A stretch of DNA of 64,000 nucleotides from an uncultured Spirochaetota bacterium (lineage in GTDB: Bacteria; Spirochaetota; Brevinematia; Brevinematales; JAOACQ01). The translations under genes were made by a program, and so were the position numbers. Positions within the stretch are counted from its first letter, which is position 1, and every line of letters begins with the position of its first letter. Shown here piece after piece: positions 26,701 through 55,106 of the stretch. The notes under the pieces are model-generated. The model was not told the DNA's origin and did no database searches. It was given only the letters and a program-made list of their open reading frames with translations. Location of the stretch: positions 1 to 64,000 of the forward strand of contig CAWAOD010000010.1 in assembly GCA_963783575.1 (NCBI GenBank). Direction: 5' to 3'.

Positions 26701-29700
26701 AACAGCTTTTAGCTGCTTATTTTCTTCTTTAACTTTATACTCTTCTATCACGATATGAGCATTTACACCACCGAAACCAAAAGAGCTGACACCAGCACGG
26801 CGCGGAATTTCATTTTCATTCGAGTCCTTTAATGCAGTCCATTCTCTTTTCTCACTAACAATATAGAACGGGCTTCCTTTAAGCTCAATATAAGGATTAA
26901 TACTTTCACAATGCAAGCTTTTCACCAGTGTTTTATGTTGTAACTGAAGTAAAACTTTAATCACACCGGCTGCCCCAGCCGCCAATTCCAGATGCCCGAT
27001 ATTACTTTTTACTGCCCCTATTCCGCAATGTCCTTCAATAGTTTCCATATTCCCTGTAGTCTCGTAAAGTTCCTTGAAAGCCGTCTTCAATCCTGTGATT
27101 TCAATTGGATCTCCCAACTGAGTCCCTGTCCCATGAGCTTCTATGTAGGTTACCGTCCTTGGATCAATCCCCGCTTTCAGGTAAGCGGTTTTCAGCAATT
27201 CCGCCTGAGCGTTTGGATTGGGCGCTGTTAAAGAATTGGTCCGCCCGCCATGATTCTCTGCCGTACCCCTGATAACACCATAAATATGGTCACCATCCTC
27301 TTCTGCTGCTTTTAACTTTTTTAGGAAAAGCATTCCCACGCCCTCCCCTCTTACATAACCGTTAGCTTGATCTGAAAATGTCTTGCAATGCCCATCCTCA
27401 CAAAGCATACCGGCTTTATTAAAACTGATATGCAGATCTGGATTGATTATCGTATTAATCCCTCCTGCTATCGCCATTGTGCAACCTTCATTTTCAATTG
27501 CGCAAACCGCGCGGTGAATAGCAACCAAGGAGCTTGAGCAAGCGGTCTCTATTGGTTCACTTGGGCCATGCAGGTTGAGAAAATAGCTCATCCGGTTCGG
27601 TCCTACCGAAGGAACAATGCCTGTGGAGGTATACCCTTCTATAACCTTGTCAGCTTTGGATAACATTTCCCCATAACCGCTTTCCGTCGTTCCAATAAAC
27701 ATTCCAGTCCTACTGCCGGAGAGGCTCTCCGCTGAATATCCTGCGTCCTCAATCACCTTCCAGACATATGTCATCAACAATCTCTGCTGAGGGTCCATCA
27801 ATTCGGCTTCTCTCGGCGATATTCCAAAGAATAGCGGATCAAACTCATAAACACCATCAATTAATCCGCCCCATTTTATATTAGACTTATTTTTTTCCCT
27901 AACTGGATCACCATAATACTTCTTCCAATCCCACCGATCTTCAGAAATTTCAATAATACTGTCTTTTTCCTCTACCAGATTATTCCAAAATTCTTTAATA
28001 TCCCTCGCTCCTGGAAATATTCCACTCATCCCAATTATCGCTATCTTTTCCGGTAAGGTTTTATCTGGTTTCTGAGATGATAAAGAAGCCCCACTAATGA
28101 ATTTCTGTCGCAAACTCTTCCTGGTATTCACTTCTTCATTCTCAATTATAACATCCTGAACCTTATTTTTATCAACAGTTTGTATTGAAAACATTTCCTG
28201 ATATTCCGTCCGTAAATATTGCGAAATACCATGGATTGTAGGATATTCAAAGAATATCGTAGGATTGAGTTCAATCCCAAATTCATGATTGATCTCGTTC
28301 GCGAATGCTGTAAATGTGATGGAATCAAATCCATATTCGCCAATTTCGGTATCTATATCAATGTCGCCAGGCTTTACCTTTAAAATTTTGGATACGTCTT
28401 TTATCAAAACTGTATGAACCCTCTCTATCAGTTCTTGATCATTAAACGTCCCGGCTGAAATTGTCTCATACTTACTTTTTCCTGTTTTTAAATTTTCAGG
28501 TAACTGTTTGATAATCAGTTTCTTTCTGATCAAAGCAATATTACCCGCAAGCACAATTAACTGATCTTTATCCAGTAAAATGCTTTTATACAAGGTATCA
28601 ATCCCATGCTCAGTATCCATCGGTGAAATTCCCATCATATTACGCAATATTTTTTCACCTTCAATACCAGCCTGCATTCCCCCGTTTTTCCAAAGAGGCC
28701 AATTCATTGTTATCGTTTTACCAAATCCCCGGCTCTTTGCTGTTTCTTCATTTCTAAACTTCGCGTATGCATCCATAAAACCATTTGCAGCAGAGTAATC
28801 CGCCTGTCCAGGATTTCCCAAAACCCCGGCTATTGATGAAAACAGAATAAATATATCCAACTTCATATTCCTGCTGGCGATATCGAGGTTTACTAAGCCT
28901 TTTACCTTTGGGCTTAACACCTCTTCTGCCTCTTCCCTTCCTTTTTTCAATAAATAACTGTCCCGAAGAACTCCCGCTATATGAATAATACCATTCAGTT
29001 TTTCATACTTTTCCTCTATCCAACGCATTAAATCTTCCACCTCGCTCTTTACTCTACAATCAACTTTCCGGTATTCTACTTTAGCCCCGTTGTTTTCCAA
29101 TTCTTTTATCCACGATTCTTTCTCAGTACTTATACCGGAACGGCCTGTTAGTATTATAGTGGATTCCTTCGTTTTAACCGATATTTCCTTTGCGAATGTT
29201 CTACCGAGTCCGCCTAACCCTCCGGTGATCAGGTAAACTCCCCCCCGTTTCCAGGGAATAACTGATTTATCTTTTGTAATCTCAACTTCCTTCAATTCCT
29301 CTACAAGTCTTTTTCCCTTTTGATATCTTATCCGGTTTTCTCCTGTTCTTACCGCGTTATCTTCCAGGATTTTCAAGATCACTTCTGTGTTTTTATTTCC
29401 ATCCAATTCAATCAACTGACCAATTATCTTTTGATTCTCCAGATGTGCCGTTTTCAATATCCCCGATAACCCGGCAAACATCTGTTTCTCTCCTTCAACG
29501 GTCACAACCGCCTGGATTAGCACCTTTCCACCGGGTTTTCTTTTAATCACTTGCTGGATTTCCTCTATCATTCTCAAGGCATAGTTCTGATAACGTTCCC
29601 CAATTTTCTGTCCCTTTTTATTAGGTTTCAATATGATACAATTCGCCGTTTTTATGCGGGCGTCGATATCTTCCGAGGTAATCCCATCCAGTTCACAAAG

Positions 29701-32700
29701 AAATACTAGATGTTCAACATACTCTGCAATCTCCTTTTCCTTATCCAAGTTTGTTTCCTTCCAAACCGGTTCCAGAATGAGAATCCCGGAGCTTTCAAAT
29801 TTCTCCATCACCCTCACCGCAAGACCTTTAACCCGGACATATACTTTTCCTTTATCGTCACATATGTCTATATCAAACTTACTGCCTTTACCGCCCTGAA
29901 CCGACTTTACAACAGCCCACATCGATTGAATACAGTTTTCCATTATCTCAAGCCCATCTAAAGCAAAGGGAACAACCGCTCCGCCCCCATCAATGCTTAA
30001 AAGGCCCATAACCGCCTGAAAAGCTGAATCCAGCATTGAAGGGTGAAGATTATATTTTCCGGCGTTGACCGTAACTATCTCCGGCATCGTAATCTTTGCC
30101 AATGCCTCATTATCCGCGACAAACAGCAAGTCAATCCCGCGATGCCCTGGGCCATAATCTATACCAAAACCCTTGAAATCTTTGTAACATTCTTCCGATG
30201 ATAATTTCCGTACCCATTTCCTTTTTTGCACAGTTTTTAAATCTATGATAACTTTTTCATTAACATCTCTGAACTCCACTGTTCCCTGGCTATGAACAAT
30301 GCTCTCCTCCTCTTCCCCCCCACTGTAAACCTCGTACATGATTTCTCCCTTCTCACCGGGAATTAATCCAATATTTACCTTCACGGGCTCATTCTCAACT
30401 ACAACCGGCCTAGCCCAAACCACGTTCTTCAACACTATCCCTGGCTTCTTTTCTTTATTGGACACTGCCGCATTTTCTACCGCCGCTCTTGCCATTTCTA
30501 GATAAGCAACTCCCGGAAGCACCTTCCTTCCATTTATCTGATGATCGCTTAAGAAAAACTCCTCACCGGTAAATATAGAACTGTACTTCTGCTCCAAGAA
30601 ATCAGAGGTATTCTTATGCAGTAAAGGATGAATAAAATCTCCATCAAAACCAGCATTGTTATGATACGATTCACAAGAATAGTTTCTATTTCCATAAATC
30701 CAGTAACTTTCTCCATCAAATGGATATGCCGGTAAAGATACACGATAATATTTTTGATCTTTAAATAGCTTATTCCAGTTCAGATTATAGCCAGAAATAT
30801 ATAAATTGGATAATATTAATAATTTTTCTTTATATTCTTCCGATGTGAAATTCTCTGTTAAGGCTAAATCCTCAATAATTTTTTCACCATATTCTTTTAA
30901 TCCATTCAATATAGGTTCATTTTTACTAGAATTCACCCTCTCATTAAGAAATGCATTTTCCGAAGTATTATTCATTACATCTAAAATACTTTGTTTTAAT
31001 TCATCTAAATCCTTCGCAATAAAAGAACATCTGAAAGAAAAATGATCACGACCTGTTGATAATGTATATGCAACATCTTTTGCTGAACAGGAATGACTGT
31101 TTTTATCCAACCAGCCATTGAAATCAATTAATTTTTGTTTCAGGTCTTTTTTAGTCCTTGCTGAAAAATAAAATAAATAATAGGGTTTTAACTCATTGTT
31201 ATTCAATATCTTCTTTGCCGGCGGTTCTTCGATGATGACATGGCAATTTGTACCGCTAAATCCGAAGGAACTCACACCGGCCCTTAAGGGTATACCATCA
31301 TTAGTTTCCCATTTTTTCAACTCAAAATTGAGGAAAAAAGGGCTATCTTTTAAATCAATATGTTCATTAATAAGATTCACAGGAATGGAGGGAGGAATCT
31401 GCCGATATTTCATTGACATTAAGATTTTGAAAACACCAGCAATACCAGCTGTCATAATAGTATGCCCGAAGTTTGGCTTGTGCGACCCAATTACACAAAA
31501 TTGTTTTTTATTCGTAAACATTCGAAATGATTCAGATAACGCTTTAAATTCAATCGGATCGCCAAGTTTAGTTCCTGTACCATGAGCTTCGATATAAGAC
31601 ACCGTTTCCGGATTAATCCCGACCTTTGTATATGTTTGATAAATCAATTCTTTTTGTGACAACATACTCGGTGCAGTTATACCCTTTGTCCTTCCGTCTT
31701 GATTAATTGATGAGCCTTTTATGATCCCATAGATATGGTCCCCGTCTTCAATGGCGGATTCCAGATGTTTTAAAACTAAAGCGCCAACACCTTCCCCAAC
31801 AACAATGCCATTTGCATCATTATCAAAAGATTTACATTTTCCATCCGGTGAAAGCATTTCAGTCTTTGTCGCCATAATTAGAAATTCAGGGGAGCAGATC
31901 ACAAAAACACCGCCCGCAATAGAGATATCAGATTCACCGCTGTTAATGCATTCACAAGCAAGATGCAGTGCAACTAATGATGAGGAACAGGCCGTGTCAA
32001 CAGCCAGGCTTGGCCCCTTCAGATTTAAATAATAAGATAACCTTGCGGCCAAAATCGACATATCAGTGCCTAAAAATGTCTGCGAATTAATCTCCTGCTC
32101 TGATAATGTCATTTCTTTATAATCAGAAGACCGTCCCCCAACAAATACCCCCACCTTTTTGCCAGATAACTGCTCTGAAGAATATCCCGCGTCTTCCAGT
32201 GCTTTATATGCTTCTTCAAGGAATAACCTCTGCTGGGGGTCCATTCTTTCCGCTTCAATGGGAGAAATATTAAAAAATAAAGCGTCAAATTTATCAATAT
32301 TCTCAAGCATCCCGCCCCATTTGCTAATCGATTTGTTTTTCTTCATAGGATCGGAACTATAATAATCCGATTCTTTCCAGCCCTTCCGGTTGATTTCCTT
32401 TATACAGCTATCACCAGATTGCAAGTGGCTCCAGAATTCTTCCATAGTATTCGAACCGGCAAACCTGCCTGAAATACCGATTACAGCTACTCCAGGTATC
32501 TCATTCTTTATTACATTTTCTGTCTCGGAATTATTATTCGTTTTTTTTGCAGAAGACCATTCTTTTGAACCGGAATTGCTCATTGTTTTTTCTTCACTTT
32601 TGATGATCCCATATTGACTAGCTATTTGTTCTGCTAATTCCTTCGCCCCTTTATAATCGAAAACCGCATCCACTCCTAAATCAATACCCAATTTTTGATT

Positions 32701-32853
32701 GACAGCTTCTATCAGGTCAACCGATAAAACTGAGTTGATGCCCAATTCTAAGAAACTCGCTTCTTCTATCAATGAGTTATCCTGAACATTTAATAAACCG
32801 GCAATAATCGCTTTTATCGCATTTTCAATATCCTTAACATCATGAAATATCAT
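20578..32853 (-). CDS. Trans-AT PKS subunit 1 (~4090 aa): ACP-KS-DH-KR-ACP-KS-DH*-KR-ACP-KS-DH
   Basis: Uninterrupted ORF (track start 32868; ATG at 32853 follows GGAG). ACP GINSV and two GFDSI; KS DTACSSS, ETACSSS, NTACSSG, each with HGTGT; DH HQINGRKVLPG and HLVKGQKVLPG; KR GGLGGLG (LRD) and GGCGGLG. No AT domain. Confidence 0.95.
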   Translation of the reverse strand: MIFHDVKDIENAIKAIIAGLLNVQDNSLIEEASFLELGINSVLSVDLIEAVNQKLGIDLGVDAVFDYKGAKELAEQIASQYGIIKSEEKTMSNSGSKEWSSAKKTNNNSETENVIKNEIPGVAVIGISGRFAGSNTMEEFWSHLQSGDSCIKEINRKGWKESDYYSSDPMKKNKSISKWGGMLENIDKFDALFFNISPIEAERMDPQQRLFLEEAYKALEDAGYSSEQLSGKKVGVFVGGRSSDYKEMTLSEQEINSQTFLGTDMSILAARLSYYLNLKGPSLAVDTACSSSLVALHLACECINSGESDISIAGGVFVICSPEFLIMATKTEMLSPDGKCKSFDNDANGIVVGEGVGALVLKHLESAIEDGDHIYGIIKGSSINQDGRTKGITAPSMLSQKELIYQTYTKVGINPETVSYIEAHGTGTKLGDPIEFKALSESFRMFTNKKQFCVIGSHKPNFGHTIMTAGIAGVFKILMSMKYRQIPPSIPVNLINEHIDLKDSPFFLNFELKKWETNDGIPLRAGVSSFGFSGTNCHVIIEEPPAKKILNNNELKPYYLFYFSARTKKDLKQKLIDFNGWLDKNSHSCSAKDVAYTLSTGRDHFSFRCSFIAKDLDELKQSILDVMNNTSENAFLNERVNSSKNEPILNGLKEYGEKIIEDLALTENFTSEEYKEKLLILSNLYISGYNLNWNKLFKDQKYYRVSLPAYPFDGESYWIYGNRNYSCESYHNNAGFDGDFIHPLLHKNTSDFLEQKYSSIFTGEEFFLSDHQINGRKVLPGVAYLEMARAAVENAAVSNKEKKPGIVLKNVVWARPVVVENEPVKVNIGLIPGEKGEIMYEVYSGGEEEESIVHSQGTVEFRDVNEKVIIDLKTVQKRKWVRKLSSEECYKDFKGFGIDYGPGHRGIDLLFVADNEALAKITMPEIVTVNAGKYNLHPSMLDSAFQAVMGLLSIDGGGAVVPFALDGLEIMENCIQSMWAVVKSVQGGKGSKFDIDICDDKGKVYVRVKGLAVRVMEKFESSGILILEPVWKETNLDKEKEIAEYVEHLVFLCELDGITSEDIDARIKTANCIILKPNKKGQKIGERYQNYALRMIEEIQQVIKRKPGGKVLIQAVVTVEGEKQMFAGLSGILKTAHLENQKIIGQLIELDGNKNTEVILKILEDNAVRTGENRIRYQKGKRLVEELKEVEITKDKSVIPWKRGGVYLITGGLGGLGRTFAKEISVKTKESTIILTGRSGISTEKESWIKELENNGAKVEYRKVDCRVKSEVEDLMRWIEEKYEKLNGIIHIAGVLRDSYLLKKGREEAEEVLSPKVKGLVNLDIASRNMKLDIFILFSSIAGVLGNPGQADYSAANGFMDAYAKFRNEETAKSRGFGKTITMNWPLWKNGGMQAGIEGEKILRNMMGISPMDTEHGIDTLYKSILLDKDQLIVLAGNIALIRKKLIIKQLPENLKTGKSKYETISAGTFNDQELIERVHTVLIKDVSKILKVKPGDIDIDTEIGEYGFDSITFTAFANEINHEFGIELNPTIFFEYPTIHGISQYLRTEYQEMFSIQTVDKNKVQDVIIENEEVNTRKSLRQKFISGASLSSQKPDKTLPEKIAIIGMSGIFPGARDIKEFWNNLVEEKDSIIEISEDRWDWKKYYGDPVREKNKSNIKWGGLIDGVYEFDPLFFGISPREAELMDPQQRLLMTYVWKVIEDAGYSAESLSGSRTGMFIGTTESGYGEMLSKADKVIEGYTSTGIVPSVGPNRMSYFLNLHGPSEPIETACSSSLVAIHRAVCAIENEGCTMAIAGGINTIINPDLHISFNKAGMLCEDGHCKTFSDQANGYVRGEGVGMLFLKKLKAAEEDGDHIYGVIRGTAENHGGRTNSLTAPNPNAQAELLKTAYLKAGIDPRTVTYIEAHGTGTQLGDPIEITGLKTAFKELYETTGNMETIEGHCGIGAVKSNIGHLELAAGAAGVIKVLLQLQHKTLVKSLHCESINPYIELKGSPFYIVSEKREWTALKDSNENEIPRRAGVSSFGFGGVNAHIVIEEYKVKEENKQLKAVLDNPALIVLSAKNEEKLKEMVKSLAEAIESEDFSDNRLIEIAYTLQVGREAMEDRLGFTAGTIQELKEKLTLYLKGDHEAENIYIGQVKKNKETISMLMADEDIQKAIESWIGKKKYIKILELWVKGLNFDWNRLYEGKKPDRISLPSYPFSREIYRIDVSGENNRYAASQIKYIHPLVQENTSDLTEQRFSSVFNGDEIFFSGNRVNGNKVLLEAAYLEMARAAVTFASKPMIGDKKGIRLKNYFWANPLTVGDKAIKVNISLIPEEDRGLSFEIYSEKEGGEFVVYGHGMAEINGSNEEKIIDLKALQEKKWDKTLSLEKCNEALLNVRITYDPGNCGIETVYIGDSEALVKLTIPAPFTNNTGESVAQTLMLDAAFYAVIYWQKGESRADGMHPFVMEEMELMRDCLKSMWAVLKKRVENGSNQFDIDLCDNNGRIYISLRGLQLRESMEVLPNLSIGNSIQTIIKNDKDENDSIMTFEEVWQESEIQETTNKEIKRIVCFLSKDENQQEAMDFIRMLGQNTDVIFINDGKAFQRKNKVEYSVKANDPGAFKEAFENIRKESGEVDVIIYLWPIEKRSYIKDYSCIVYILQGAAAAGLRPERYILGGRIKNGLDRCFLESWIGFERSIGIMMPSVRITGVFEDSNSQAGELSIKGWMERVWQELKAAKGRSAFYSHGKRQVCCIRQINVNSGNDIIKRKGTYLITGGCGGLGFLFAEYLAKTKSVNLILTGRSKINENIKKKIRLLEESGSQVLYRDADVCDAARMKEVYSEANNLFGGIQGIIHAAGIPGADNILSKDMKDFQKVIDPKVKGTLVLDEIIQDDSIDFICYFSSSAAVLGDFGSCDYAIGNRYQMSYAGYRNQLKKKGRRKGDAIVINWPLWREGGMRLGKPETTSMYIKSSGQRLLEKEEGIALFEKLLAQKNAHYLVLAGQKERVLSFISNIEDPSKPILNKVEHLELKKIGTGILSLSLERNLEWELIEQISQILKINRENIGKEENLAEFGFDSISLGEFAHVLNRHFNLEITPAVFFGYSTVSKLTGYLLQEYREQINTFYSSYAVEEIKNTNNSGKNTKNLLEKRRPRFAFNNPGRKDQESIAIIGMSGRFPDSWNIEDMWHILSEGINTVKEYPQNRLNEVDKFKWKCGCIPGVDEFDPLFFEISPREAEVMDPRQRLLLEESWKALEDAGYGLNQIKKNKMGMFVGVEHDEILNHQQYPSDETNMTSNHEGVLAARLAYFLDFNGPVMAINTACSSGLVAAHQACLSLNSGECDTAIAAGIHLMLRKDLFESMNQADVLSQDAKCYTFDKRANGLAAGEAVVAVVLKKLSRAERDGDPIYAVIRSSGINYDGKTNGIMAPSGVAQGELLKTVYEKGKVNPEDIEYVITHGTGTKLGDPVEVNALNKVFKTYTKKQEYCALTSNKTNFGHTFAASGLVSLINMVQAFRYKTIPASLHFEQENEFIQWVESPFYVNKSNKLWTDRNGKRRIGAISAFGMSGTNAHMVLESYSEEHSYDDELPYYLMVLSAKNLESLKTKITDMAIFLEKKDWNIKNMGRLCYTLFEGRQHFNERIAIVVRDCAEAINTLKKYIENHKLPNLFYGKISFNFNGQKAIEQYINELILQVRSMRNNTESCQEKLFALAEFYCQGYNIPWSGMYIEKEPERMNLPTYPFSKEKYQVIGEERKQIGHTAFSRCIHPLLHENTSVLKEQRYNTEFTGREFFLTDHLVKGQKVLPGAVYLEMARAAVEAAAEKTAGYVVCLKNIVWIRPFIVEEKPVKINIRLVPGENSEILFEFYSGNNPAETVIHSQGTAEIIQVKEEFLINIDDLQNRQWQEVISAEECYEEFCKTGIVYGIGHQGIKIIYISEGILLAKLEMPPTVIHSSDGFILHPSILDSAMQAAIGLKIIEGEIEAIMQFSIDRVEIISTCVPSMWAILKYNESEKIKKFDIDLCDDKGRGCVRIKGLSLRSINAEGKHTNQFFNSEDVRDITLPVRDSEMSINSLLSLVKNGSIDIQSADQLLNELSIFEEIHGNNIESL

Positions 32854-32868
32854 ATACAATTTCTCCAA

Positions 32869-33690
32869 TTACATTATCTTTTCACCATAACACATAAACA
32901 ATTGCCGGACGATCGCATGTGTCCCGCTTTTCAGCATATCTCGCCATTCTATAGATATTTTAGCCAGGGCTTTACTGGACAAATAACCATCCTTAACCAA
33001 TTTTGAGGGTATGCCTATCCCTTCAGATTTCTGGAATATTTCTTCTCCCAAAATCTCGCTATGAGCGCTAATAATTTCAAAATCAATATGAGAAAAACCG
33101 CCCTTTTTTAGGATAACGGGCAGTTCCCTTCCAATTTTTGGGTTTCCACCTTCAGCATATCTCGACTCACAATAAGCATCATAGAGATCTCTCAACATTA
33201 AAATTTGAGGATAGGTCATAATATGCATTTCAAAATCATTATCAATAAAAATGGCTTTCCCACCCGGTTTCAATATCCGGTATACTTCCCGGATTGCGCC
33301 AACCGGATCAGGCAAGTGTTCCAATAATAACCGAATAATAGCAAAATCAAAGGTATTATCCTCTAAACCTGTTTCCATAATCGATTTCTGAATAATTTTA
33401 AATCTATCATATTTCTTTTCTTTCAAATAGTTGTTAGCGTAATCAACGAGTATCGGCTCTATCTCGACTGAGGTTATATTCATGTTTTTAAACTTATCCA
33501 TCAAATTCTTAGTAATAAAACCAGGACCGGACCCAAGCTCAACTAAAACCATACCATCCTTTAACCCATACTCGATATAATGCTTTAATTCTTTACCCCA
33601 AAATAAATCCACCTGGGACTTTAGCCTCTCAATTTCCTTATTAATACTACTAGCGATTGTTTTAATTTGGTACGAACCCGGATTATTCAT
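32869..33690 (-). CDS. Class I SAM-dependent methyltransferase
   Basis: Motif I LVELGSGPG, FDFAIIRLLLEH, RILKPGGKAIFID; abuts the PKS subunit 1 start. Confidence 0.88.
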   Translation of the reverse strand: MNNPGSYQIKTIASSINKEIERLKSQVDLFWGKELKHYIEYGLKDGMVLVELGSGPGFITKNLMDKFKNMNITSVEIEPILVDYANNYLKEKKYDRFKIIQKSIMETGLEDNTFDFAIIRLLLEHLPDPVGAIREVYRILKPGGKAIFIDNDFEMHIMTYPQILMLRDLYDAYCESRYAEGGNPKIGRELPVILKKGGFSHIDFEIISAHSEILGEEIFQKSEGIGIPSKLVKDGYLSSKALAKISIEWRDMLKSGTHAIVRQLFMCYGEKIM

Positions 33691-33709
33691 TTTTATTCAT
33701 CCCCTCGTT

Positions 33710-34491
33710 TTAATTCATATTTCCATTTAAAAAAGAAAGAATTTGATCGGCCGCTATAATCCAATTGGGATCCAGCATCATATCATGGGAAATATCAGGA
33801 AAAATAACCGGATTTGTATTGTAAACTCGCCCTATTCCGATGATTCTTTTTTCTGGCAGTAGCCAGTCTTTTCTGCTCCCAAGAATTAATATTGGTAATG
33901 TTGTAATTAAAGCCTCAGGCACTATTCTTTTCAAAGATTCCATTATGACAAGGTTGGATTCAGGTTGTAGCTGCCAGGTATATTTTTCTCTTTTTTCAAC
34001 CGACAGTTTTTTAGAAAAAAAACTCCTGTCGGAAAACTAATATTTTTACCCTGATTAAATAAATAGGCTTGTACGATCTTCTTAAAATGAATAAAAAATA
34101 ACCGAATAAAATCTTTCATCATACCTTCAGGTGGAAGAGGTGCCATTAAAACAATCGCCTTTATCTTATCCTGATGAAATTGTAATAGCTTTTGAACAAT
34201 CCCTCCGCCCAGAGAATGCCCAATTAAAACCGGTTTTTCGTTCATACTTTTCATAACATTAAGAACATCCAGCATATAATGATTGATTGTATAAGAATGA
34301 AGATCATTATACCCGGTGCTGTTTCCATGACCCCGTAAACTGAGAGCATAGGATGGAAAACCTTTAGATGAGAAATAGGGAAGAAAATTCTCCTTCCAGC
34401 ACCATGCCCCATGATTGATACCATGGATGAATAATAAAGAAGATTTCTTCGATTCTTTCTTGGGTAAATCTTTTATTACTTCCAATCCCAT
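33710..34491 (-). CDS. Alpha/beta-fold hydrolase (possible thioesterase/esterase), frameshifted at a T8 run
   Basis: LLFIHG, SLRGHGNS, nucleophile GHSLG in ORF 33943..34557; acid/His region (GSRKD, SHDMMLD) in ORF 33710..33943. One extra T in the run at 34015-34022 joins them. Likely start ATG at 34491. Confidence 0.85.
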
Positions 34492-34569
34492 ATATTCCCA
34501 ACCCTTTTTCATCATACACTGGAGAATTTTTAAATTTACAAAAGGATAATTAATCACTACTTCTTTAAT

Positions 34570-36117
34570 CTAAACGATTTCATTATGGAAACGGTTAAAT
34601 CGTTGATTGAGAATATCTGCGGTTTCATTTAATAGCTTTAACGCTATTTCATCCACATGCCTATTCCTCCAGTTTTCTAAATCAGTTCCTTTAACCCATT
34701 GATTAAATGCCCCTAAAGAAGGTCCGCAATGGATTTGATAATCGACTTTACTTTCCTCGCTGCCGGTAAGTGCAAGTTGAGTAGAATATCCAAAATACCA
34801 TCTAAAAATGATAGCCATTTTCATCTTTGGATTCTTTTCCGCTTTTTCAATTTCATTGGAATCTTGAGATTTAAAATAGGCTTTACAATCTTCATATATA
34901 CTGCTAAAACTTTTTTTAAAGTACTTTTCTTGTATCTGCGTTTTCGTCTTTTCATCAATCTCTTCCAGTGAATTGTATTGTCTGTAAAGATCATACAACT
35001 TGTTTGCCCTAGCCGGAAAAAACAAACCTTTTTTTAAAACCTGGACTTTAGCCCCGATTTCAAACATATCTCCAGCCGGAGCATAGTCTGTATCTTGAAC
35101 GTTCATCTGCTGAAGTAAATCTTTTGCTGCATCGCTCGTCCCTGCCTCAACGGTACATTGGTTTATTGATCCAGTGGTAATAAAGTCGGCTCCCAGAATA
35201 AAAGCTGCCGCAGCAGCCTCGGGAGTTCCAATCCCTCCAGCCGCTCCAATGTGAACTTTTTTTTGATTCGGATATTTTTTCATCATATCATCGCGCAGTT
35301 TAATCATAGCTGGCATTAATACATAAGCGATACCACCGTCTGTATGCCCTCCTGAATCAGCCTCAACACAAATATCATCCGCAATGGGAATTTCTTTTGA
35401 CAACTCGGCTTCTTCCTTTGTTATTTTATTTTCAGTTAAGAGTTTATTCAGAATCTGCTCGGACGCAGGGTTTAAAAAAAATTCTGCCACTTCCGGCCTT
35501 GACAATTTTGCAATAATCTTATTCGAAGAAGTTATCCTTCCAGATTGATCTTTTGATAACCCCTTTGCATGATATTTGACTAAAGCCGGAGTAACCATTA
35601 AATAAGCAGAAGCTTCAACATTCTTTACCCCATATTTTAGATAAAGGTCAACTGTTTTTTCTTCCATACTGGGATTATTTGGATTATGCAATAAGTTCAA
35701 TCCATAGGACTGACCGCCGGCAAGTTCTTTCTGTAAATATTGAATTGCATCTTCAATCTCGGATAGATTCATACCGCCTGTCCCAAGGAAACCCATCATA
35801 CCGGCTTTACCCATTTTTACAACCATTTGCTTTGATGCTATTCCGCGAACCATGCTCCCGGTAATATAGGGATATTTCAGACAGTATTCATTCTTAAAGT
35901 CTTGATCACCCAGAGAAGCAGCTGTTATACCCATTACTTTGGGAACTGGTATCATTTCACTTTGCATGAATTGTTTGTCCTGATTTTTTTCTACAACATC
36001 CGTAACATTCTGTTTTATTTTCACGGATTCGGAATTAACATCATTAATATCTTGGATATTTCTCATTTCTTTTTTAGCGCCTTCTATCATATCCTTCAGA
36101 ATTTCTGACCGTTTCAT
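34570..36117 (-). CDS. Trans-acting enoylreductase (PfaD/FabK-like, PksE C-terminal type) with ~60 aa unrelated N-terminal extension
   Basis: [60 protein letters not shown] at 36117 has RBS GGAGG and sits 1 nt after the parA stop. Confidence 0.92.
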
Positions 36118-36118
36118 T

Positions 36119-36871
36119 TTATTCCTCCATAATCCCTTTTGAAATTTCAGCAAAAACAGGAATTGATTTTGATTTTGGAAAAACATCATAAAGCGGTTTT
36201 CCAAGAAGCTGAGAATCTTTTATCTTACTGTCTTGCGGAATAGTATATAATTTATAATTCATTTCATTAAACAACTCGCTCACTATATCATGCGAACTCA
36301 TTGAAGAATTTTTATTATTGATGATAACCTTCTCATGTTTCACATTTCGCCTTTCATATTTATTCAGATTTTTAATATCAATTGAAAGAGCGGATAAACC
36401 GGAAATACCATATTTTTCTGGTATAAATGGGCTTATAATTTCATCCAAAGTGATCGCTATCCCCTTCTCAAGAATTCCGAAATTTGGGGATAAATCGTAA
36501 AACACATACTCAAAACCTTGTTTCTCGAGGTCCTCATTTAATTCCTCAAAGAAATACCGTTGTTTATTAATCACTATATCCGAATCTTCCCTCAGTTCAG
36601 AGCCTTTTCCCTCTGTTTTTATAAAAAATAAATACTCATTATAACGGGATAAAGACTCCGCCGGACTCGCCTTATCATTAATGATATCCAGTAGCTGGTA
36701 TTGGCTGATATCCGCGCCTTTATATAGGCCATCCGTCGCATTCCCTTGAGGGTCAGCGTCAATTAAAACCGTTTTCTTTTTAAATTTTGTCGCAATGTAA
36801 TGTGCGACGGTCACTGTAAGGCTTGTTTTACCTACCCCGCCTTTTTTACAGAAGAATGAGATTTTTTTCAT
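36119..36871 (-). CDS. parA: ParA/MinD-family ATPase
   Basis: Deviant Walker [19 protein letters not shown], Walker B VFYDLSP, 250 aa, RBS AAGGAG. Confidence 0.92.
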
Positions 36872-36912
36872 GATAATTCTCCTTCATACTGCCTATCAAA
36901 TATTAGTTTTCC

Positions 36913-37263
36913 TTATTTTTTAACATAAGTCACCAGAACCGGTAATACTTTTACGACATAGGGTAGAACAGAAATTGCGTAAACGCAAACGCTTAATGAC
37001 GTCAAGCTGAAAAGTATCCAAGAAACAGTTTTCTGGCTGATTTTTTTCGCTTCTTTCTGCTTATTGAACTGTCTTAAACTAAGAAAAACACCGATCACAA
37101 TTTCTATTGCAAAAGTGAGCATTAATAATATGGTCAATAGAAACTTTTCAGAAGTATACCCAATATATACAAACAAAAACATATAGATAGGCCAGGGAAA
37201 CAATAAAATATACAAAATAGTGCTTCCAACTACTACTGAGTTTAAAAATGATTTCATATTCAA
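36913..37263 (-). CDS. Small hypothetical membrane protein (about 3 TM helices)
   Basis: Three hydrophobic stretches with a Lys-rich loop; RBS GGAGG; co-oriented between the radical SAM gene and parA. Confidence 0.7.
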   Translation of the reverse strand: MNMKSFLNSVVVGSTILYILLFPWPIYMFLFVYIGYTSEKFLLTILLMLTFAIEIVIGVFLSLRQFNKQKEAKKISQKTVSWILFSLTSLSVCVYAISVLPYVVKVLPVLVTYVKK

Positions 37264-37277
37264 TCCTCCATTAATTT

Positions 37278-38849
37278 TTATATCAATAATTCGGACAAAA
37301 ACTGTGAGGTTATGTCTTGAAAAATCTCATCATTCCAATAATCTTCGTCCACCACTTGTTTTTTGACTATTTTAGTATTTGCAAAAACAGGAGCTTCTAA
37401 AATTTTATTCAAAATGTTTTGCATAAATTCGCAAAGGCAGGTATTTGAACGTTCCAATGATAGAAAAAAATATTCCCGGAGAGGAGAGTTGATGATTCTA
37501 AATAATACCGATGTTAGTTTTGATAAATAATTCAATTCCTCTTCATCGATTGTACTTGTTGAATAAACGGTATGAGGCGCATTGAATGAATATTTTATTT
37601 CATATTTTTCACACAATCTCTCAAGATCGGAACCAGGCAATATTTGAAGACGGTGGATATTTAAAATATGGTCTGTATTCCTCAGGTAAGGTAAAATAAT
37701 CCCCAATCCATTAAAATAAGATCCAAATGTCTCCAAAGGCAAACCCAAAATCAGGTCAATTTTTAATACGATATTATATTTATTAATATTCGACATGAAC
37801 AGTTTAAATTTATTATCATCTATCTTATATCTACTGACAGCATTTAATGCTTCTTTATGAAAAGACTGTAATCCGATACAATTAATGACATTATAATCTT
37901 TAAGTAAATCTGAGTAATGTTGTGCCAAATCCAAAGGTATGGTATTGTTGGTATTAATAATCACTTCACGGTTTTTTAATTCTGCAGTTAATTGGATAAA
38001 CTCCTCGTCACAATCATAGCATGTAATTTCCCAATAAATCCAGGGAAGTTTTATACCGCTCTTTTTAATATGTATCAAATGCTTCATTATTTCTTTTGCT
38101 CTGGTAACATCAGACATAAAATCTGAATCAAATATTCTTAATGCAGAAATCTGTTTCTGAATAATGAGATGATCTATTTCTCTTTTGACTCTATCCAGAG
38201 AATTATAAGCGATTTTTTGGACGCCTTTATGATACAGGCAATACTTGCATTTAAAACGGCATCCCCTTTGAGTTTCCAAAAATGCCTGCTGCCTTGAATA
38301 TAATCTGTCTTCAATAATATTATCCAGGTATATTGATGGAATATCATCCAAATTGGTTATCTGGCCGCCATTTCCATTATAAATTAATTTTTCATCTTTC
38401 CAATACGCAAGGCCTTTTATCTCTTTTAATATTTCTTCATTTTGATGATTCATCAAATACTGCATTAGCCTTAATAATGTCCTTTCGCCCTCACCGATAA
38501 CATAGAAATCGCCCCTCTGTTTTTTTTCAAATTTTTCTACCCTTGTCGGATAGATTTCCGGGCCCCCTAGAAGATGTAATGCGTTTGTCATACCCTTTAA
38601 TTCTTCAATAAGCTTTAAAATGGTTTCAATATTCCAGATATAGGAACTATACCCAATAAAATCTGGATCAAGATATGCGATTTTTTCCATCATTTTTTTT
38701 AGAGGATATGTTTCATTAAAATTAAGAACATCCACATTTAATTCTTCGTTACCGATGTTTTTTTCTAAATATCCTTTTAAAATATAGGAAGAAATAAGAT
38801 ATTGTGCTATCGTGTTTACAGGGTAGATATTTACCAGAACCAATTCCAT
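37278..38849 (-). CDS. Cobalamin-binding radical SAM enzyme (class B methyltransferase-like)
   Basis: N-terminal B12-binding-like motifs (IGYSSYIWN, LGGPE, VIGEGE), ETQRGCRFKCKYC (CxxxCxxC), DLILGLPLET. Confidence 0.9.
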   Translation of the reverse strand: MELVLVNIYPVNTIAQYLISSYILKGYLEKNIGNEELNVDVLNFNETYPLKKMMEKIAYLDPDFIGYSSYIWNIETILKLIEELKGMTNALHLLGGPEIYPTRVEKFEKKQRGDFYVIGEGERTLLRLMQYLMNHQNEEILKEIKGLAYWKDEKLIYNGNGGQITNLDDIPSIYLDNIIEDRLYSRQQAFLETQRGCRFKCKYCLYHKGVQKIAYNSLDRVKREIDHLIIQKQISALRIFDSDFMSDVTRAKEIMKHLIHIKKSGIKLPWIYWEITCYDCDEEFIQLTAELKNREVIINTNNTIPLDLAQHYSDLLKDYNVINCIGLQSFHKEALNAVSRYKIDDNKFKLFMSNINKYNIVLKIDLILGLPLETFGSYFNGLGIILPYLRNTDHILNIHRLQILPGSDLERLCEKYEIKYSFNAPHTVYSTSTIDEEELNYLSKLTSVLFRIINSPLREYFFLSLERSNTCLCEFMQNILNKILEAPVFANTKIVKKQVVDEDYWNDEIFQDITSQFLSELLI

Positions 38850-38887
38850 ATTTATTTCTCCATTTTCATACAGATAATTATTAAATC

Positions 38888-41800
38888 TTATTTTCTTAAA
38901 CCCATGATACGTTGCCTCTGAAGTTCCCCTCTTTCTTTCATTTTCTTTAATTTATTATCAACCTCGCCTTTTGTTAAGAATTCCGCGAGTTTCCTGATGG
39001 TGGTATATTGAAATAAATCTGTTATTTGCAGCGCCTGATCAAACTCATTTTGTATTTTGCTTAAAAATTGAACCAATTGAATAGAATGCCCACCAAGATC
39101 GAAAAAGTTGTCGTCAATCCCGATTGAATCTTTATTTAAAACTTCCTTGATCAATCCTACAATTTTTTCCTGAACATCATTTGCCGGTTCAGCACTGGAT
39201 GAGGGAATTTCTGCGATCACAGGTCCTTTAATATTAATTTTATCAATACTATTGTAATTATTTAATATATCCAGTAATATTTCCTGATCATGTCTTTTGG
39301 TGCTACTTATTGTTTTCTTATCTTTAAGCTCTAAATTTTCTTCTTTGTTTAAAGAGGTTGGATTAAATTTTAAATCAATCATTTTTCCAGAAGAGTAATA
39401 AAATATTTCACTATCATTCACCTTGTCATTTTTTAAATACTCAATACTATTCAAGAAATTATATACAGGAATATTTTTTGATGTGGAGTGATAGGGTATC
39501 ATAATATCTTCAATATTACTCTTTTTTGCCAGTTCCGCGATTCCGCTCATAATTCTATGCTCAACCCCTTTCCCCAAAGTCCTGCAGCTTAGGATAAAGG
39601 ATTCAACTTTTAAATATTTGCCAATTAGAATATAGAAAACCGCCCCAACCAACCCGTATGAACCAAACCGGTCGCTCACTTTTACAGTTAAACATTTATT
39701 CTGCTTATTTGATATAAATTCGCTAATCTCTTGTTCCGTACGGCGCAAAGTGGTTGTATTAAATTGATTGGTCCTCAAAGTCAGCTGGCTAACCCTTAAC
39801 AGATCTTCATTTTTGATTTCCTCAATATCGATTTTCAGTTGTAGCGAATTTACAAACTCTTCAAACGAGATGTGTTTTTCGATTTCCTTATTGCGTAAGA
39901 TATCCTGTTTATACATAACAGTCCTAGCCCTGTCCTCTTCAGTGATCTTCAGATGGTCCCAGAACCAGCCATGTTTAATTAAATTATGAATGCTTTCCGG
40001 TTCCTGCGGAAATTGTAATGTAAGCACTTCCGGAATAGCGCCGGATACTTCCGCGCATTCCAGAGGATTATCATCAATAAAAATAAAACTGTCCAGGCCA
40101 AGATTCAGTTCTTTTGAAATCTTTATTATATTTTCAGACTTAGATTCCCAGTTAGCTTTGATTAACGTGATATGGTCAGCAGTTAAAATCATTCCGGATT
40201 TTTCCTGTAATGCTTTTAATATATCCGATTCTTCATTTTTGCTAACCAAACAAAGGACCATACCATTTCCCTTCTGTTCAGCCATCCATTTTTGAAATTC
40301 TGCCCTTTCGGGATCGATCTCAATTTTATCGATTCCGTCTTCACCGATAACACCTTTCCAGAGAGTATTATCACAATCTAATACAATCACTTTAAACGGT
40401 TTTCTTTTTATTGCATAGATTTTCCTGGAAATAGCTGTCCCCAGGGTTTTATAAAAGTCCACAGTATAGGGTAAATGCCCTTCTTTATCAGTCAACTCAT
40501 CGAAAATATGGGTGATTGGAAATGGGGTAAGTACTTCCTCATCTTTTAATAAATATATATTACTTAGTGGCATGATTCCTTTAATTATTTTTTCTTTTAG
40601 AATTTCAACATCTTCCTCTGCTATTAAGTTTGCTTCATTTCTCGAAGGTAAAATACTTAATATAACCGGGACTGTAAAGCTATTTGCAGCTTTCTGCAGG
40701 GACTTAATAAAATCATCACATATACTAAATATCTTTTCCTTAATATCTGAATTATTCCTATCATCCGTGCTATATCTGATCCAATCTTCCAACCTAATCA
40801 ATAAAACATTAATTCCATCCTTATTCATCATCATAAGTTGAGAGGGGTCTAAAAGCTGGTTAAACACTTGATTATAATCAGCGAGTTCAATGGAGGAAGG
40901 CATTTTCAGCTTATTCATCCAGAATGATAAGATTTCTTTAACCGGTTGATCGGAAAATGTTGAAGAAATAATGATCCTCTGTTTATAATTCTTTATGCTA
41001 TAATCATCAACTTTCTTTTGTAAGTCATCCGGAATCACTAATTCTTTTATTTTTATATCCGGTTTTTTTACAATTTGCTCGATTATGGATACATACCCCG
41101 ATATTATGGCTTGTGCGGTGCTGTCCAGAAATAATTCTTTTGAATAATCAAATGCGCCGACAATCCTTTGATTATTCACCCCCATTGATAAAAAGATATC
41201 ATAATCGGAATACCCGGAAAACAAATATAAATCTTCAACAGAAATATCATCTACAACAGGATATTCGCGGATTTGTATCAAATTAAACATAACTTGAAAC
41301 AATGGATTCATATTAAATTCATTCTTATTTGTTAGATTTTGAACTAAATTAAAGAACGGTATATCAGAATGATTAAACGCATTATTGCTGATATCTAAAT
41401 TAACTTTCATGAGATTCACAATATTTTGATCTGGGAAAAATTGATTCTTTAGAACCAGGGCATTGGCAAAATTACCAATTATTTTCTGAAAATCCGGTAA
41501 TTTACGATTTGCCATAGCACAGCCGATTAAAAATTCATTCTGCCTGCTAATAATGTAAAGCAAACTGGCAAATGCCGAATAGAGAAAATTAAATATGGTA
41601 ACTTTTAATTCCATGGTCAGTTTTATTATAGCTTGAACCGTTTCTTTATTTAAATCAAATACAATTTCTTCGGCCTGATAGGTTAAAGTTTTCGGCCTAT
41701 CAAAATCATAAGGCAAACTAATAGTAGTTGGGACATTTTTAAGTGTTTCTATCCAATATTCAACCAGCTGTTTTTCAGTTTTTCCCATTAATGCATTATG

Positions 41801-42720: not shown

Positions 42721-45700
42721 TTAGACTATATCCCTGATTTTATCACACATTTCCTTTTTTAATTCTTCAAAAATTTCCAGAATTTTATTGTTGCTGTTTT
42801 CACACATGGAATAGATTGAAAAATTAATATTCTTATCTGTAGTTCTAATATCCACATAAAATAAAAGCTTTTGCGCATCTATAGCCGATTCTTTTCTTCT
42901 TTCATCATCTAAGATGGATTCTTCTATAGAATAAATACGATAATTCCCTAAATAGTTGAATGCCATTAAAGCAGGTTGTTTCGTATGCTGTTGTTGAATT
43001 TTATCAGCATTTAACCTGGCATACGCATTATTGATGAAAACTAATCCTTCTTTAAATAAATAATTTATTTTCGCAAAAGCGTCTTCTGCCATTTTCATAG
43101 GGTCTTCTCTATTAATTGGAATGAGAAACGGTATGAAATCAAGGAAAAGCCCTATTGTCTTAAAATAGTATTTATTTTGATAATATCTTCCAAAATTAAC
43201 TATTTCAACAGGGATTTTATCTATCTGGAAATATTGAGATAAAAACAGCATATAAAAAATCAATGAATGCTTCCATAAAACATCTTCTTCCATGCTGTTT
43301 TTATATTTTAAATTATATTCCACTTTGAAAGCCTTATCCTGATTGGGAAGGACAATATTATTTTTAATAAATTGCTTAATTTTAACCTGGTATTGATAAA
43401 TTTCATAAAGATTAAATAATTTATTTAATTCATTAAAATCTGATAATCTATTGTCATTCTGTATACTGAAAACATATTCGTCATAAGTGTTTATTTTCTC
43501 GTTAATTATTTCTTTATGATTCAGGTAAGCATTATAATATTTAACAATATATCCCCTCAGTACATTTTCGCTAAGTACATCAAATATCAAATGAGATATA
43601 GATAAAAATAAACAATAATCCTTTAGATTCTTTTTAATTAAAATAAACTGGTATAAAAGCTCATTACTTTCATACATTCTCTTAAATACATCTTCAATGA
43701 TATTGTAAATAAAAAATGACTGCCTGTTGCTGTCATACATGGAAATATCGATTACCGGAATTTTAATGGAAGCAGGAGGAGAAAATACAGCCCATTGATT
43801 CCCTTCCTTATTTAGCATACTTCGAAAAACAAGCTGTTCTGAAATAATGATTAGTAAGGTCTGTTCAAGAATTTTAACATCAACAAAATAATCGAAAGAA
43901 AATACACTGCACATAGTTAAAGAGTCAAAAAGCTGCTTTTGACAAGGAGTAACAGGGTATTCAAGGACAATATCGTTTTTTTTAAAATATCCATTAAACT
44001 CTTTTTTATGTAACTCTATTTCTTGCCTTATCACATTATAGGTTGCTATACTATCTACATTTTTACATCCAATGATATCTTTTAAAATCGTATAACTTAT
44101 CTCCTGATTATCAGTTAATGCTTCAGGATAATAAGATAACGGCAGTATATAATTTGGAAAATTATTATTTGATATCTTATCTTTGAGTGTTTCAATGATT
44201 GAATCTATTAAAGGCTCATCCGCAAATAATAAATGGATTTTTTTGTTATTATTTTCAAGCTTCAATCTTAATTCTTTTGAAGTGAAATGACAGTTTTCAT
44301 GGATTAAACTGATTAAATCATTTGAATATGGATTATTTTTTTCGATTATTTTATTACTTTCAATAAAATTGCTCAACTCAACAGTAGACGGATGGTTAAA
44401 TATATCGCTAAATGATATTTTAAATCCGTGTTTCTGTAACTTATTTACAATTTTAATATTATGCAATGAGTTCAACCCCAATTCAATTACGGATTGGTCT
44501 ATACTAATCGGTTTAAAATTTAAGGATTCTTCAAAAACCTGATTAATAATTTTATGCAATTCGGTTTCAGGCAGCTTAATTTTTTCATTATAAATATATA
44601 AAGTTAATGGATCCGGAAGCATTTTTCTATCAATTTTTCCATTCCGGTTTAATGGAAGTTTTTCTAAATGGATAAAATAAGAAGGAACCATATAAACCGG
44701 CAGCTTTAAAGATAGAAAATCCCTCAATTCTTTGTTCGGAATATCCATATCCGACACATAGTATGCCGTTAGGAATTTATTCCCTTCACTATCTTCCCTC
44801 GTGAGTACAACCGCTTCCCAAATATCCTCATGCTTTAACATCTGGCTCTCTATATCTCCCAGTTCAATTCTGAAGCCTCTGATTTTCACCTGTTGGTCAA
44901 TTCTTCCTAAATACTCGATATTCCCATCCGGCATCCACCTTGCAAGATCTCCTGTCCGGTACATTTTTTCCCCTTTTTCATACGGGTTATCTACAAATTT
45001 CTCTGCCGTTATTACCGGACTATTCAAATACCCTCGTGCCAACCCATCTCCAGCTATGCATAATTCTCCGCTGACGCTTTTAGGCAAAAGATTCCCCGAT
45101 TGATCTAAGATATAAAGCCGGATATTATCTATCGGTTTCCCTATTGGCACTATTTCCGTTTCGTTATCTTTTTCACAATTGTAATATGTAACGTCGATTG
45201 CTGCTTCTGTAGGGCCGTATAAATTAATTAATCTTACGGCTTTTCTTTTTAGTAGCTTATTAAACAGATTTACATGTTTTGGAGTCAGCGGTTCTCCGCT
45301 CGAAAATACCTGTTTTAAACTGCCGAGCTGATCTATTGCTTTCTTTTCTTCCATTTGCTCTAAGAAAGCCCCCAGCATCGACGGGACAAAATGTATAGTA
45401 GTGACGCTATTCTTCTCTATCGCTTCCACAATCATTATCGGGTCCTTTTCTCCTCCCGGCTGTAGGCATCCAAACCCCTGCCCCGGTGAGCGACCACCAT
45501 ATCAATTCCCAGACCGACACATCAAAAGTATACGGTGTTTTTTGAAGAATAATATCAGTATCCCTGATAGGATATTTTTTTTGCATCCAATTGAGCCTGT
45601 TTATCAATGAATAATGTTCAATCATAACACCCTTGGGATTCCCAGTAGAACCGGACGTATAGATTACATACGCCAAATTCCTAGGCCCAGCTTTTTCTAG

Positions 45701-47749
45701 GGATTTATTGCTGACGTAATTTTCAAAGCTGTCGGAACCATACTGGAATTTATGTCTTTTAGTTGTTTCTTTCTCTTTAATTGATTGGTCCATTTCCATA
45801 ATACAATCATATCTATAAGTTGTTAATTCATTTACTATGGTATGGATTTTTTTAGAAAAAGTCACCTCTTTTACTACCTTCAAATCTAAAGCCAAATCCT
45901 CAAAAAAACCTTTTGAATAGAATAATTCATTGTTAAATTCTGTCTTTGTTCTTAATCCAGGGTTATTCTTCTTAAAATCGATGATTGAATTAATAAGCTC
46001 TGCTTTTCGATCGAGGTCCATTATATCGCCAACATATATAATACCTTTATCTCGTAAAAGAGAAACAATTTTCGATACAACATCTCTCAGGTAGTTATAT
46101 CCTGGAAATAATTGTATCACACTATTAATAATGACTATATCAAAATCTTTTTCACGGATTTTATCGATATCATGCGCTGCGAGGTATTCTAATTCTATAT
46201 TATTTATACCATTTTCTTTTATTTTAATTCTATTATTTTCAATCATTACCTTTGATAAATCGGTCCCATAATACATCTCAACATCTTGCGCAACCCTATA
46301 CATCGTTATACCTGATGCGCATCCTATTTCAAGTACTCTTGTCTTATTATTCAGGTAAGGCTTCAGCTTCTCGTATGTATTTTGTGCGTATTCTTCCATC
46401 TCTAGTTTTGAGAATTCTTCTCCCGTATAACTGCTTTTCCATCCCCCTTCACCGATTTCATTGGATGCTTCCTTCCCTATAGAATCCCAAAGCTTTTCAT
46501 CCATCAAACCGAATTCCTCTGCTTCTTCAGGCTGGTATATATCCGTACTATCTATACAAATAAATGAATTAAAAGCACTGCACTCCCATTGCAATTTATT
46601 AATTTTATTAATATCTTTTTTATCAATCACAACAACTTCAATTCCCGCATTATCTATAATAGATTTTATCCGCTCAATGGGAAACTCCGGGTCTATCGGC
46701 ACGTAAGCCCCTCCCGCTTTGAGTATACTGAGTATTCCTACAATCATATTTTCCGATCTTCTCATAAATAAACCGACAAGCGATTCCGGTTTTATCCCAT
46801 TTTTATCACTTAAAAAACCAGCTAATTTATTAACTTTTTCATTTAATTCCTGATATGTCAGTTTCCTGTCTTCAAAAACAACCGCAATATTTTCTGGCGT
46901 TCTCTGGACTTGTTCTTCAAATAATTCAACTACGGTCTTGTCCCTTGGGTAATCTTCTTTCGTATTATTGAATGTACTAAGCAGCTCTTCTTTTTCACTA
47001 TTTGTTAAAATATCAATCTCTGATAATTTCATAATTGGATTCATTATAGCCATCTCAATAAATCTCAATATATGTTCAACTATCTGGCTAACAAACTGGC
47101 TTTCATATTTATTCTTATTGTATTTAAGGTTTAGAACTTGTATGTTTTCCTGAATTGAAAAGAAAAAGCACATATCACATTTCAAATCGTCAAAATTTAC
47201 CTTGGTATGCATTTGCTCGAGCAATATAATAGTTTTGAAAAAAGATAACGGATCTGAAGAATCCTCAAGATTTAACAATACAGGAAGATTTTTATATGAA
47301 AAATGAGAATATATTCCAGATTCAGTGACATTATTTTCAATTTCTGTAAGGTAGTCTTGAATAGAAATATTCTCATGAATTAAACTTCTTAATAAAATGA
47401 GATTGTCATTAGTTTTAATGTCGGATTTACTATTTAAAACAGGCATACCTATATTGATATCTTGATTACCAGTATACCGAAATAACAAATAGTTCACTGC
47501 CGCCAATAAAACGATAAAGATATCCTGTAAAGAATTTTTATTTAAATCGAATAACGGTTCATCTTCTTTTCTATTAAGATGAAAGAACCGGGATATGTAT
47601 TCATAATCATAAATTGTATTTTTGTTTCGACTGGCTGGGAAAGTACTGATAACAATCTCCCCTTGAAGCTTTTCATGCCAATATTTTTTATCATCTTCAA
47701 ACTGAGAGTTTGATGCCGGAGTATTTTTTAAATTTTGATACATATACAT
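42721..47749 (-). CDS. NRPS: partial C - A(Ser-type, interrupted by a methyltransferase) - PCP - C-like; frameshift at ~45465
   Basis: ORFs 45407..47764 and 42721..45435 join (GAGVWM-L-QPGGEKDP) on removing one C. A cores LKAGGAYVPIDP, YTSGSTGNPKG, FDVSVW, NLYGPTE, GELCIAGDGLARGY, YRTGDL, NGKIDR; MT VLEIGCASG; PCP LGLNSL; terminal SHLIFD. ATG at 47749 follows AAGGAG. Confidence 0.9.
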
Positions 47750-47825
47750 CCGAGTCTCCTTCACAAAATTATTTATAAACTACCCCATCTTCTTATGTTA
47801 TTAAAAAACGGATTATACTATATCT

Positions 47826-54381: not shown

Positions 54382-54436
54382 ACTATCTCCTAATTACATG
54401 CCCAATAATACATCAATCCGATATCAATCTTCTTAC

Positions 54437-54676: not shown

Positions 54677-54678
54677 TT

Positions 54679-55089: not shown

Positions 55090-55106
55090 AAATTTATCTG
55101 CCTAAT

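Follow-up and report, generated by a model that had tools for sequence, protein, structure and literature searches.

Why does an intact gene for a ParA-type ATPase lie in the middle of a polyketide synthase operon, one base ahead of the gene for a trans-acting enoylreductase (ER), and what could the ATPase do there? Here we analyse this arrangement in a trans-AT PKS/NRPS cluster that occupies the minus strand of 1-54.7 kb of the window, the whole 64,000-nucleotide stretch of DNA from an uncultured Spirochaetota bacterium (contig CAWAOD010000010.1, positions 1 to 64,000). The best explanation, to which we give a probability of about 0.5, is that the ER took over the slot of a plasmid partition partner and that ParA and an N-terminal helix of the ER form a positioning system. 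The features on which the analysis draws, among them those of a related metagenomic locus (L014), are as follows.

36119-36871, minus strand: parA, encoding a short (type Ib-like) ParA/Soj-fold ATPase of 250 aa
36124-36128, minus strand: Shine-Dalgarno-like GGAGG within the last parA codons, 6 nt ahead of the ER ATG
34570-36117, minus strand: trans-acting ER gene, 515 aa, composed of peptide, linker and a PfaD/DfnA-type ER
36046-36117, minus strand: ER residues 1-24, amphipathic helix and candidate ParA-binding arm, delimited by conservation
35929-36045, minus strand: ER residues 25-63, linker, length kept and sequence free, predicted to be disordered
34600-35928, minus strand: ER residues 64-506, catalytic core, above the TIGR02814 cut-off
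36913-37254, minus strand: small hydrophobic ORF, 113 aa from ATG, no family
37278-38849, minus strand: B12-dependent radical SAM gene, absent at the same place in L014
38888-42649, minus strand: ACP-C-FkbH-ACP protein, its FkbH domain suggesting glyceryl transfer; 618 of 1238 residues (50%) identical to the upstream homolog in L014
33710-34557, minus strand: alpha/beta hydrolase as two ORFs, probably a frameshift
20578-32868, minus strand: trans-AT PKS subunit of 4096 aa with three KS, candidate cargo
8600-20554, minus strand: trans-AT PKS subunit of 3984 aa with three KS, candidate cargo

The parA gene is intact and lies mid-operon. Its stop codon (TAA, 36121-36119) is separated by the single base 36118 from the ER start codon at 36117, exactly as the initial annotation had described, and the GGAGG motif in the end of parA suggests that the two genes are translationally coupled. 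The GC3 of parA (0.335) matches that of its neighbours (0.30-0.37). The protein carries the deviant Walker A motif K10-GGVG-K15-T16 with the signature lysine, which conforms to the KGGxxK[S/T] pattern of ParA/MinD ATPases (PMC11407121), and D38, D40 and the Walker B residue D126 are intact; these catalytic motifs, including Walker A, are invariant in 7/7 close homologs. The predicted model (pLDDT 92.5) superimposes on Soj/ParA structures with TM-scores of 0.85-0.88 and has no membrane-targeting tail, as nothing extends past the last helix. Its C-terminal face is basic (K187, K216, K218, K233 and K235), with basic residues at positions 216, 218 and 235 in all eight sequences compared and at position 233 in seven of them. 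By our reading of the alignment, two of the four DNA-binding lysines of HpSoj (PMC6393308) have basic equivalents in this ParA (K230 and K247 are kept, K199 and K227 are not), to which the conserved K187, K218 and K235 are added. A basic pair at positions 192-193 is present in 4/10 plasmid relatives, and the same positions are mostly Ser-Ser in the ParAs of PKS clusters. The incomplete match to HpSoj and the Ser-Ser positions count against nucleoid binding by this ParA, which is nevertheless plausible.

The catalytic part of the ER is unambiguous: the profile TIGR02814 (PfaD family; positions 1-444) matches residues 64-506 with 701.8 bits at a cut-off of 449.25, and the alignment to DfnA (PDB 4cw5) begins at residue 67 (E 9e-197). 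Residues 1-63 therefore lie outside the ER fold, in agreement with the earlier remark that the first 60 or so residues do not belong to it. That remark had treated the whole stretch as one extra peptide, of which residues 1-24 hold up as a conserved element and residues 25-63 are a free linker. Across the five ERs that carry the peptide, residues 1-24 are on average 72% identical and residues 64-506 75%; the linker of 39 residues between them (residues 25-63) reaches 20%. Eleven peptide residues are invariant (M1, K2, R3, S4, L7, K8, I11, G13, A14, K15 and K16), and all five sequences have six K/R among residues 1-24. Residues 2-27 are predicted, at low confidence (pLDDT about 50), to form one continuous helix, which is followed by the disordered linker. 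An alternative, longer reading of the ER from TTG 36204 finds no equivalent in L014, where the ORF begins at the corresponding ATG.

The peptide is rare. Among the 120 best ER matches, obtained with a query profile that included two peptide-bearing sequences, it is present in 5 (query included) and absent from 115; 20 of the 25 stand-alone ERs in this set are without it. The second ER of the genome (locus L185, G000:C4:301156-302604) has neither the peptide nor a parA; its N-terminus looks like the beginning of an AT domain, and its frame is cut short by stops close to the C-terminus. Neither a ParA nor the peptide was found within 1.5 kb of any of 34 ER control loci (30 of 41 ER matches and 4 from another search), which is a weak control, as 26 of 30 are multidomain ORFs whose upstream flank is intragenic. 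A search with the peptide region returned solely the ER protein itself among 3 candidates, and comparison with PDB and Pfam gave nothing meaningful. A peptide profile run against 1.84 billion representatives yielded a single match, a tandem-repeat protein, and was insensitive in that it missed the known peptide-bearing ERs too.

Whether parA stands beside a trans-ER in other clusters had been put forward as the first check, and it does. In L014 the order is ACP-C-FkbH-ACP gene, small membrane ORF, parA (protein P0242, 76% identity), a gap of again 1 nt, and the peptide-bearing ER (P0122). The small hydrophobic ORF, which lies directly upstream of parA in both loci (36 of 96 aligned residues identical), is possibly an anchor, an exporter helper or a third component. 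The flanks of the two loci differ: L014 is missing the radical SAM gene upstream and has no ORF of at least 50 aa in the 385 bp past the ER, so that the neighbours have changed and the parA-ER pair has stayed. Directly past the ER (L014:6776-6910), some 28 nt occur as a repeat which, read by eye, is possibly the end of an insertion sequence. Besides the query, the 120 best ParA matches include 6 close homologs at 65-78% identity; the remainder are at or below 39%. Adjacency of parA and ER was read as DNA at two loci (window and L014), and three further ParA/ER pairs were matched indirectly by shared source and longest contig (P0002/P0123, 28806; P0004/P0124, 36188; P0006/P0125, 16866). ParA and ER identities run in parallel across the pairs. 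For P0003, P0005 and P0007 (3 of the 7 close ParA homologs; contigs of 1.7-5.9 kb), no matching ER is among the 120 listed. An orphan ParA encoded with candidate cargo genes in a conserved neighbourhood is thus read directly in the window and L014 and indirectly in three pairs.

In quick trees the eight ParAs form one group (SH-aLRT 95) on a stem of 0.72, and the five peptide-bearing ERs form one group with a support of 92 (40 of 121 sequences). One ParA clade and one ER clade point to a single origin inherited by several lineages, not to convergence or repeated recruitment. The close ParA clade has no member in genome_contigs (best 31%), in viral_contigs or in the 400 genomes of the phylum; in metagenome_contigs it accounts for 1/80 among the matches listed, namely L014. 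ParAs from phage records reach at most 28% identity among the best 10 of 54.

The two loci are far enough apart for their synonymous distance to be saturated. Among the four genes that they have in common, parA shows the highest conservation. For ParA, pS is 0.80 and pN 0.14 (pN/pS 0.17); for ER residues 1-24, of which 18/24 are identical, pS is about 1.0 and pN 0.11 (pN/pS 0.11). The ER core is similar (pS 0.80, pN 0.17), the membrane ORF is less constrained (pN 0.43, pN/pS 0.5), the C-FkbH gene has a pN of 0.31, and the linker evolves at a ratio of about 1 (pS 0.54, pN 0.53). These substitution patterns indicate purifying selection on both ParA and the ER peptide, and conservation of the peptide as protein and not as DNA. 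The parA-peptide-ER arrangement is real, conserved and under selection.

Several observations concern the cluster as a whole. The genome contains 25 KS-family matches, most of them at the ends of four contigs (G000 C4:290000-322055, C9:1-7300, C10:1-54700 and C11:1-37000), which we read as one trans-AT cluster, or two, of very large size that the assembly has split. An NRPS at 42721-47764, read as two ORFs, has an adenylation domain interrupted by a methyltransferase. The many frameshifts in PKS genes (window 740-8714), in the hydrolase (33710-34557) and in the chromosomal soj (G000:C18:129824-130590) are probably uncorrected indel errors, not decay. Copies of an IS1380 transposase are present at the cluster edge (window 56570-57952) and inside the PKS region of another contig (G000:C4:298215-299597).

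The ancestry of this ParA leads to plasmids. Its best annotated matches are ParAs of Brachyspira and Borreliella plasmids (32-35% identity), and of 400 genomes searched in the phylum, 10 contain a relative outside PKS clusters at 34-40%; these 10 span four genera, one of which accounts for six. In 10/10 of these plasmid-type relatives a partner gene of 74-82 aa directly follows parA, with a gap after the stop codon of 1 nt in five, of 2-4 nt in three and an overlap in two; the Brachyspira plasmid pBHWA1 shares this layout, with parA, a gap of 1 nt and a gene of 78 aa. A profile of the partner genes matches best PDB 2kel (E 0.004), which we take to be a ribbon-helix-helix (RHH) protein, and ParG (1p94) weakly (E 1.1). 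By position, the ER occupies the slot of this ParG-like partner. The plasmid relatives had been named beforehand as a point against positioning if the arrangement were also unique to this genome: the nearest non-PKS relatives are indeed plasmid ParAs, but the arrangement recurs in L014, and the relatives speak to origin, not to decay. The peptide has no homology to the N-termini of the plasmid partners (hhalign probability 0.3%); partner arms are short and variable, so this comparison neither shows nor excludes descent of the peptide from them. The genome also contains five related elements (L002-L004, L006 and L007; G000 C5 and C15) with an HTH repressor, an ORF of 91-101 aa and a parA. Their ParAs are unrelated to that of the PKS cluster (27-30%), and in at least one copy parA is followed by a short ORF, presumably a primase-like zinc-finger protein.

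The parA gene is an orphan, as first described: neither a parB nor an RHH partner gene was found in the window, a soj-spo0J pair on a separate contig (C18) is accompanied by sites that resemble what we take to be the parS consensus, and no such site was recognised beside parA. The profile of plasmid partners has no match in the whole genome at E<=5, and no iteron or repeat array was found near parA (33000-40000) or at 54000-57000. Of the elements of type Ib partition, an RHH centromere-binding partner (the ER is in its slot) and centromere-like repeats are thus missing at the locus.

These findings suggest the following scheme. A plasmid-type cassette, composed of parA and a gene for a small ribbon-helix-helix partner, would have entered the trans-AT PKS/NRPS cluster, where the enoylreductase took the place of the partner, contributing a 24-residue N-terminal helix and a flexible linker and no DNA-binding domain. 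In step 1, ParA-ATP dimers would coat the nucleoid via the basic C-terminal face. In step 2, the ER helix would bind the dimers and trigger hydrolysis and release, as the arms of ParG, McdB and ParB do. In step 3, ACP-bound intermediates on many modules would recruit the ER, and the ER would couple the ParA gradient to the assembly line; the synthase clusters would be distributed along the cell and passed on when it divides. The first two steps have precedents: the ATP dimers of ParA/MinD ATPases bind a matrix and are released by the N-terminal region of a partner (PMC11407121; 10.1101/2022.06.09.495121), which is generally basic (PMC11407121), 20 residues of McdB are necessary and sufficient (PMC12139897), and encapsulins and other foreign cargo fused to the McdB peptide are distributed by McdA (10.1101/2025.09.22.677801). 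For step 3, trans-AT PKSs assemble into clusters and filaments some 0.2 um in size, with megacomplexes built through lateral KS contacts by LINKS (PMC9491710), and a megacomplex may form in this cluster. Recruitment of a trans-ER is ACP-dependent and is not known to be stable (10.1101/2023.11.30.569433), so the ER may be a weak tether and the link between ER and synthase is the weakest step. We consider it probable that ParA and the peptide are partners (steps 1 and 2) and that the ER helix is a natural ParA "luggage tag". For the complete scheme of three steps, in which a domesticated plasmid ATPase would position a PKS megasynthase with a 24-residue arm on a catalytic subunit as its tag, the odds appear slightly short of even. 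The proposal in the initial annotation that the ER is an adaptor between ParA and the assembly line thus gains from the partner slot and from the restriction of the peptide to this ER lineage (5/120), and it is binding, attachment of the ER to the PKS and positioning that we infer.

The plainer alternative offered at the outset, a plasmid or phage scar with an accidental fusion, has the plasmid ancestry of ParA on its side and is nevertheless very improbable. L014 shows the arrangement again at a synonymous distance that is saturated, and the low pN/pS of ParA and peptide between the two loci contrasts with a ratio of about 1 in the adjacent linker, a pattern that a scar cannot explain; invariant catalytic motifs and a GC3 like that of the neighbours also argue against it. 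The plasmid ParAs of Brachyspira and Borreliella, together with the IS1380 copy at the cluster edge, might instead suggest that this ParA still acts on DNA, either partitioning the cluster as part of a plasmid, chromid or island or tethering the locus, with a partner encoded elsewhere. The genome, however, has no homolog of the RHH partner and no iterons near parA; past 90 kb the contig has genes of housekeeping type, as judged from their translations, and soj-spo0J-parS is present as a set of its own. The peptide, too, would be left unexplained, and a role on DNA is improbable.

Two alternatives remain. ParA and the peptide could be partners with the ER alone as cargo, or in a regulatory role, the ER being sequestered, spread or gated and the set of reduced modules and the product mix being altered. 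The same conservation and slot evidence would be explained, in gladiolin biosynthesis the association of the ER with a module governs both the iteration of modules and the skeleton of the product (10.1101/2023.11.30.569433), and FlhG sequesters a partner besides positioning (PMC11407121). A small diffusible enzyme, however, should need no positioning system, and the ParA cargos in the part of the review covered are large assemblies (PMC11407121), so that we regard this reading as unlikely. For the peptide itself, the main rival is a role as PKS docking helix, by which the ER would be anchored on a synthase subunit, with ParA working through another partner, such as the membrane ORF retained beside parA, or at a polar or export site like BcsQ. 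Trans-AT termini commonly bear docking domains some 25 residues long, among which are types with a single helix (PMC9113145); moreover, peptide residues 1-13 resemble the helix-turn-helix termini of the PKS proteins of this genome (M1, E5, I6, L7, a hydrophobic residue at 10, and G13). Against this, the turn G-x-I-S/T/D-xxx-A, a pattern defined here with the examples in this genome that matches five PKS motifs and not the ER, is replaced in the peptide by the invariant A-K-K. The peptide is also predicted as an uninterrupted helix, unlike the helix-turn-helix of a four-helix-bundle docking domain. A SHOCT-like profile weakly matches the PKS termini (2/2) and not the peptide (0/2), 115/120 related ERs work without the peptide, and the partner-slot geometry would have no explanation. 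A docking helix is therefore a rather unlikely account, and we retain a ParA-ER positioning system as the best explanation.

In the literature covered, mostly freely accessible and judged from titles and the openings of abstracts, we found no paper in which a ParA acts for a PKS, although a gene table may mention one. The cargos of ParA/MinD ATPases named in the part covered of a 2024 review are DNA, the divisome, microcompartments, flagella, chemoreceptor arrays, and secretion and cellulose machines, and PKS/NRPS are absent there (PMC11407121). A new ParA partner architecture with a new cargo is plausible. If true, multi-megadalton PKS clusters would be a new ParA cargo, set out at intervals over the nucleoid and passed on as an organelle would be, and there would be a dedicated mechanism for the placement and inheritance of giant synthase clusters. 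The engineered peptide tags would have a precedent in nature, the path by which plasmid segregation turns into the positioning of enzymes would be visible, and a 250-aa ATPase and a 24-aa tag would form a new two-part toolkit.

Comparison with known systems places the locus between several of them. It resembles the type Ib cassettes, such as ParF-ParG of TP228 (PMC9178275), pBHWA1 and Borreliella PF32, in its short ParA without N-terminal HTH, in the next gene 1 nt downstream and in sequence, as these are its nearest relatives (32-40%); it differs in that the downstream gene encodes a metabolic enzyme without RHH domain, in that there is no centromere, and in that this ParA branches off on a long stem as a separate clade. 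With the DfnA, MlnA and PfaD family of trans-ERs (and with GbnE/EtnL by function) the ER shares the complete catalytic core, whereas the conserved N-terminal helix and the coupling to parA are absent from 115/120 related ERs and from 34/34 control loci (the weak control described above). BcsQ, ParC/PpfA (for chemoreceptor arrays) and VirC1 are likewise ParA/MinD ATPases encoded in the operon of a large machine, and BcsQ has been suggested to localise the cellulose biosynthetic apparatus (PMC11407121); these belong to other ATPase lineages (13% structural identity to BcsQ) and have dedicated adaptors, and no PKS is listed among their cargos. As in McdA-McdB, an orphan ParA stands beside cargo genes, and the interaction unit of McdB is an N-terminal helix of about 20 residues with lysines (PMC12139897). 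Here, however, a catalytic subunit bears the putative arm as a fusion, the 25 ORFs of the window compared with Pfam include no McdB-like protein and no carboxysome or BMC shell genes, and ParA resembles McdA no more closely than it does Soj. The engineered MapTag (10.1101/2025.09.22.677801), a ParA-binding peptide placed N-terminally on unrelated cargo, has the very architecture that we propose, but is synthetic, whereas the present pair would be natural, with another ATPase lineage and an assembly line as cargo. A member of neither McdAB nor type Ib, the ParA-ER pair would, if our reading holds, work like McdAB or the engineered MapTag.
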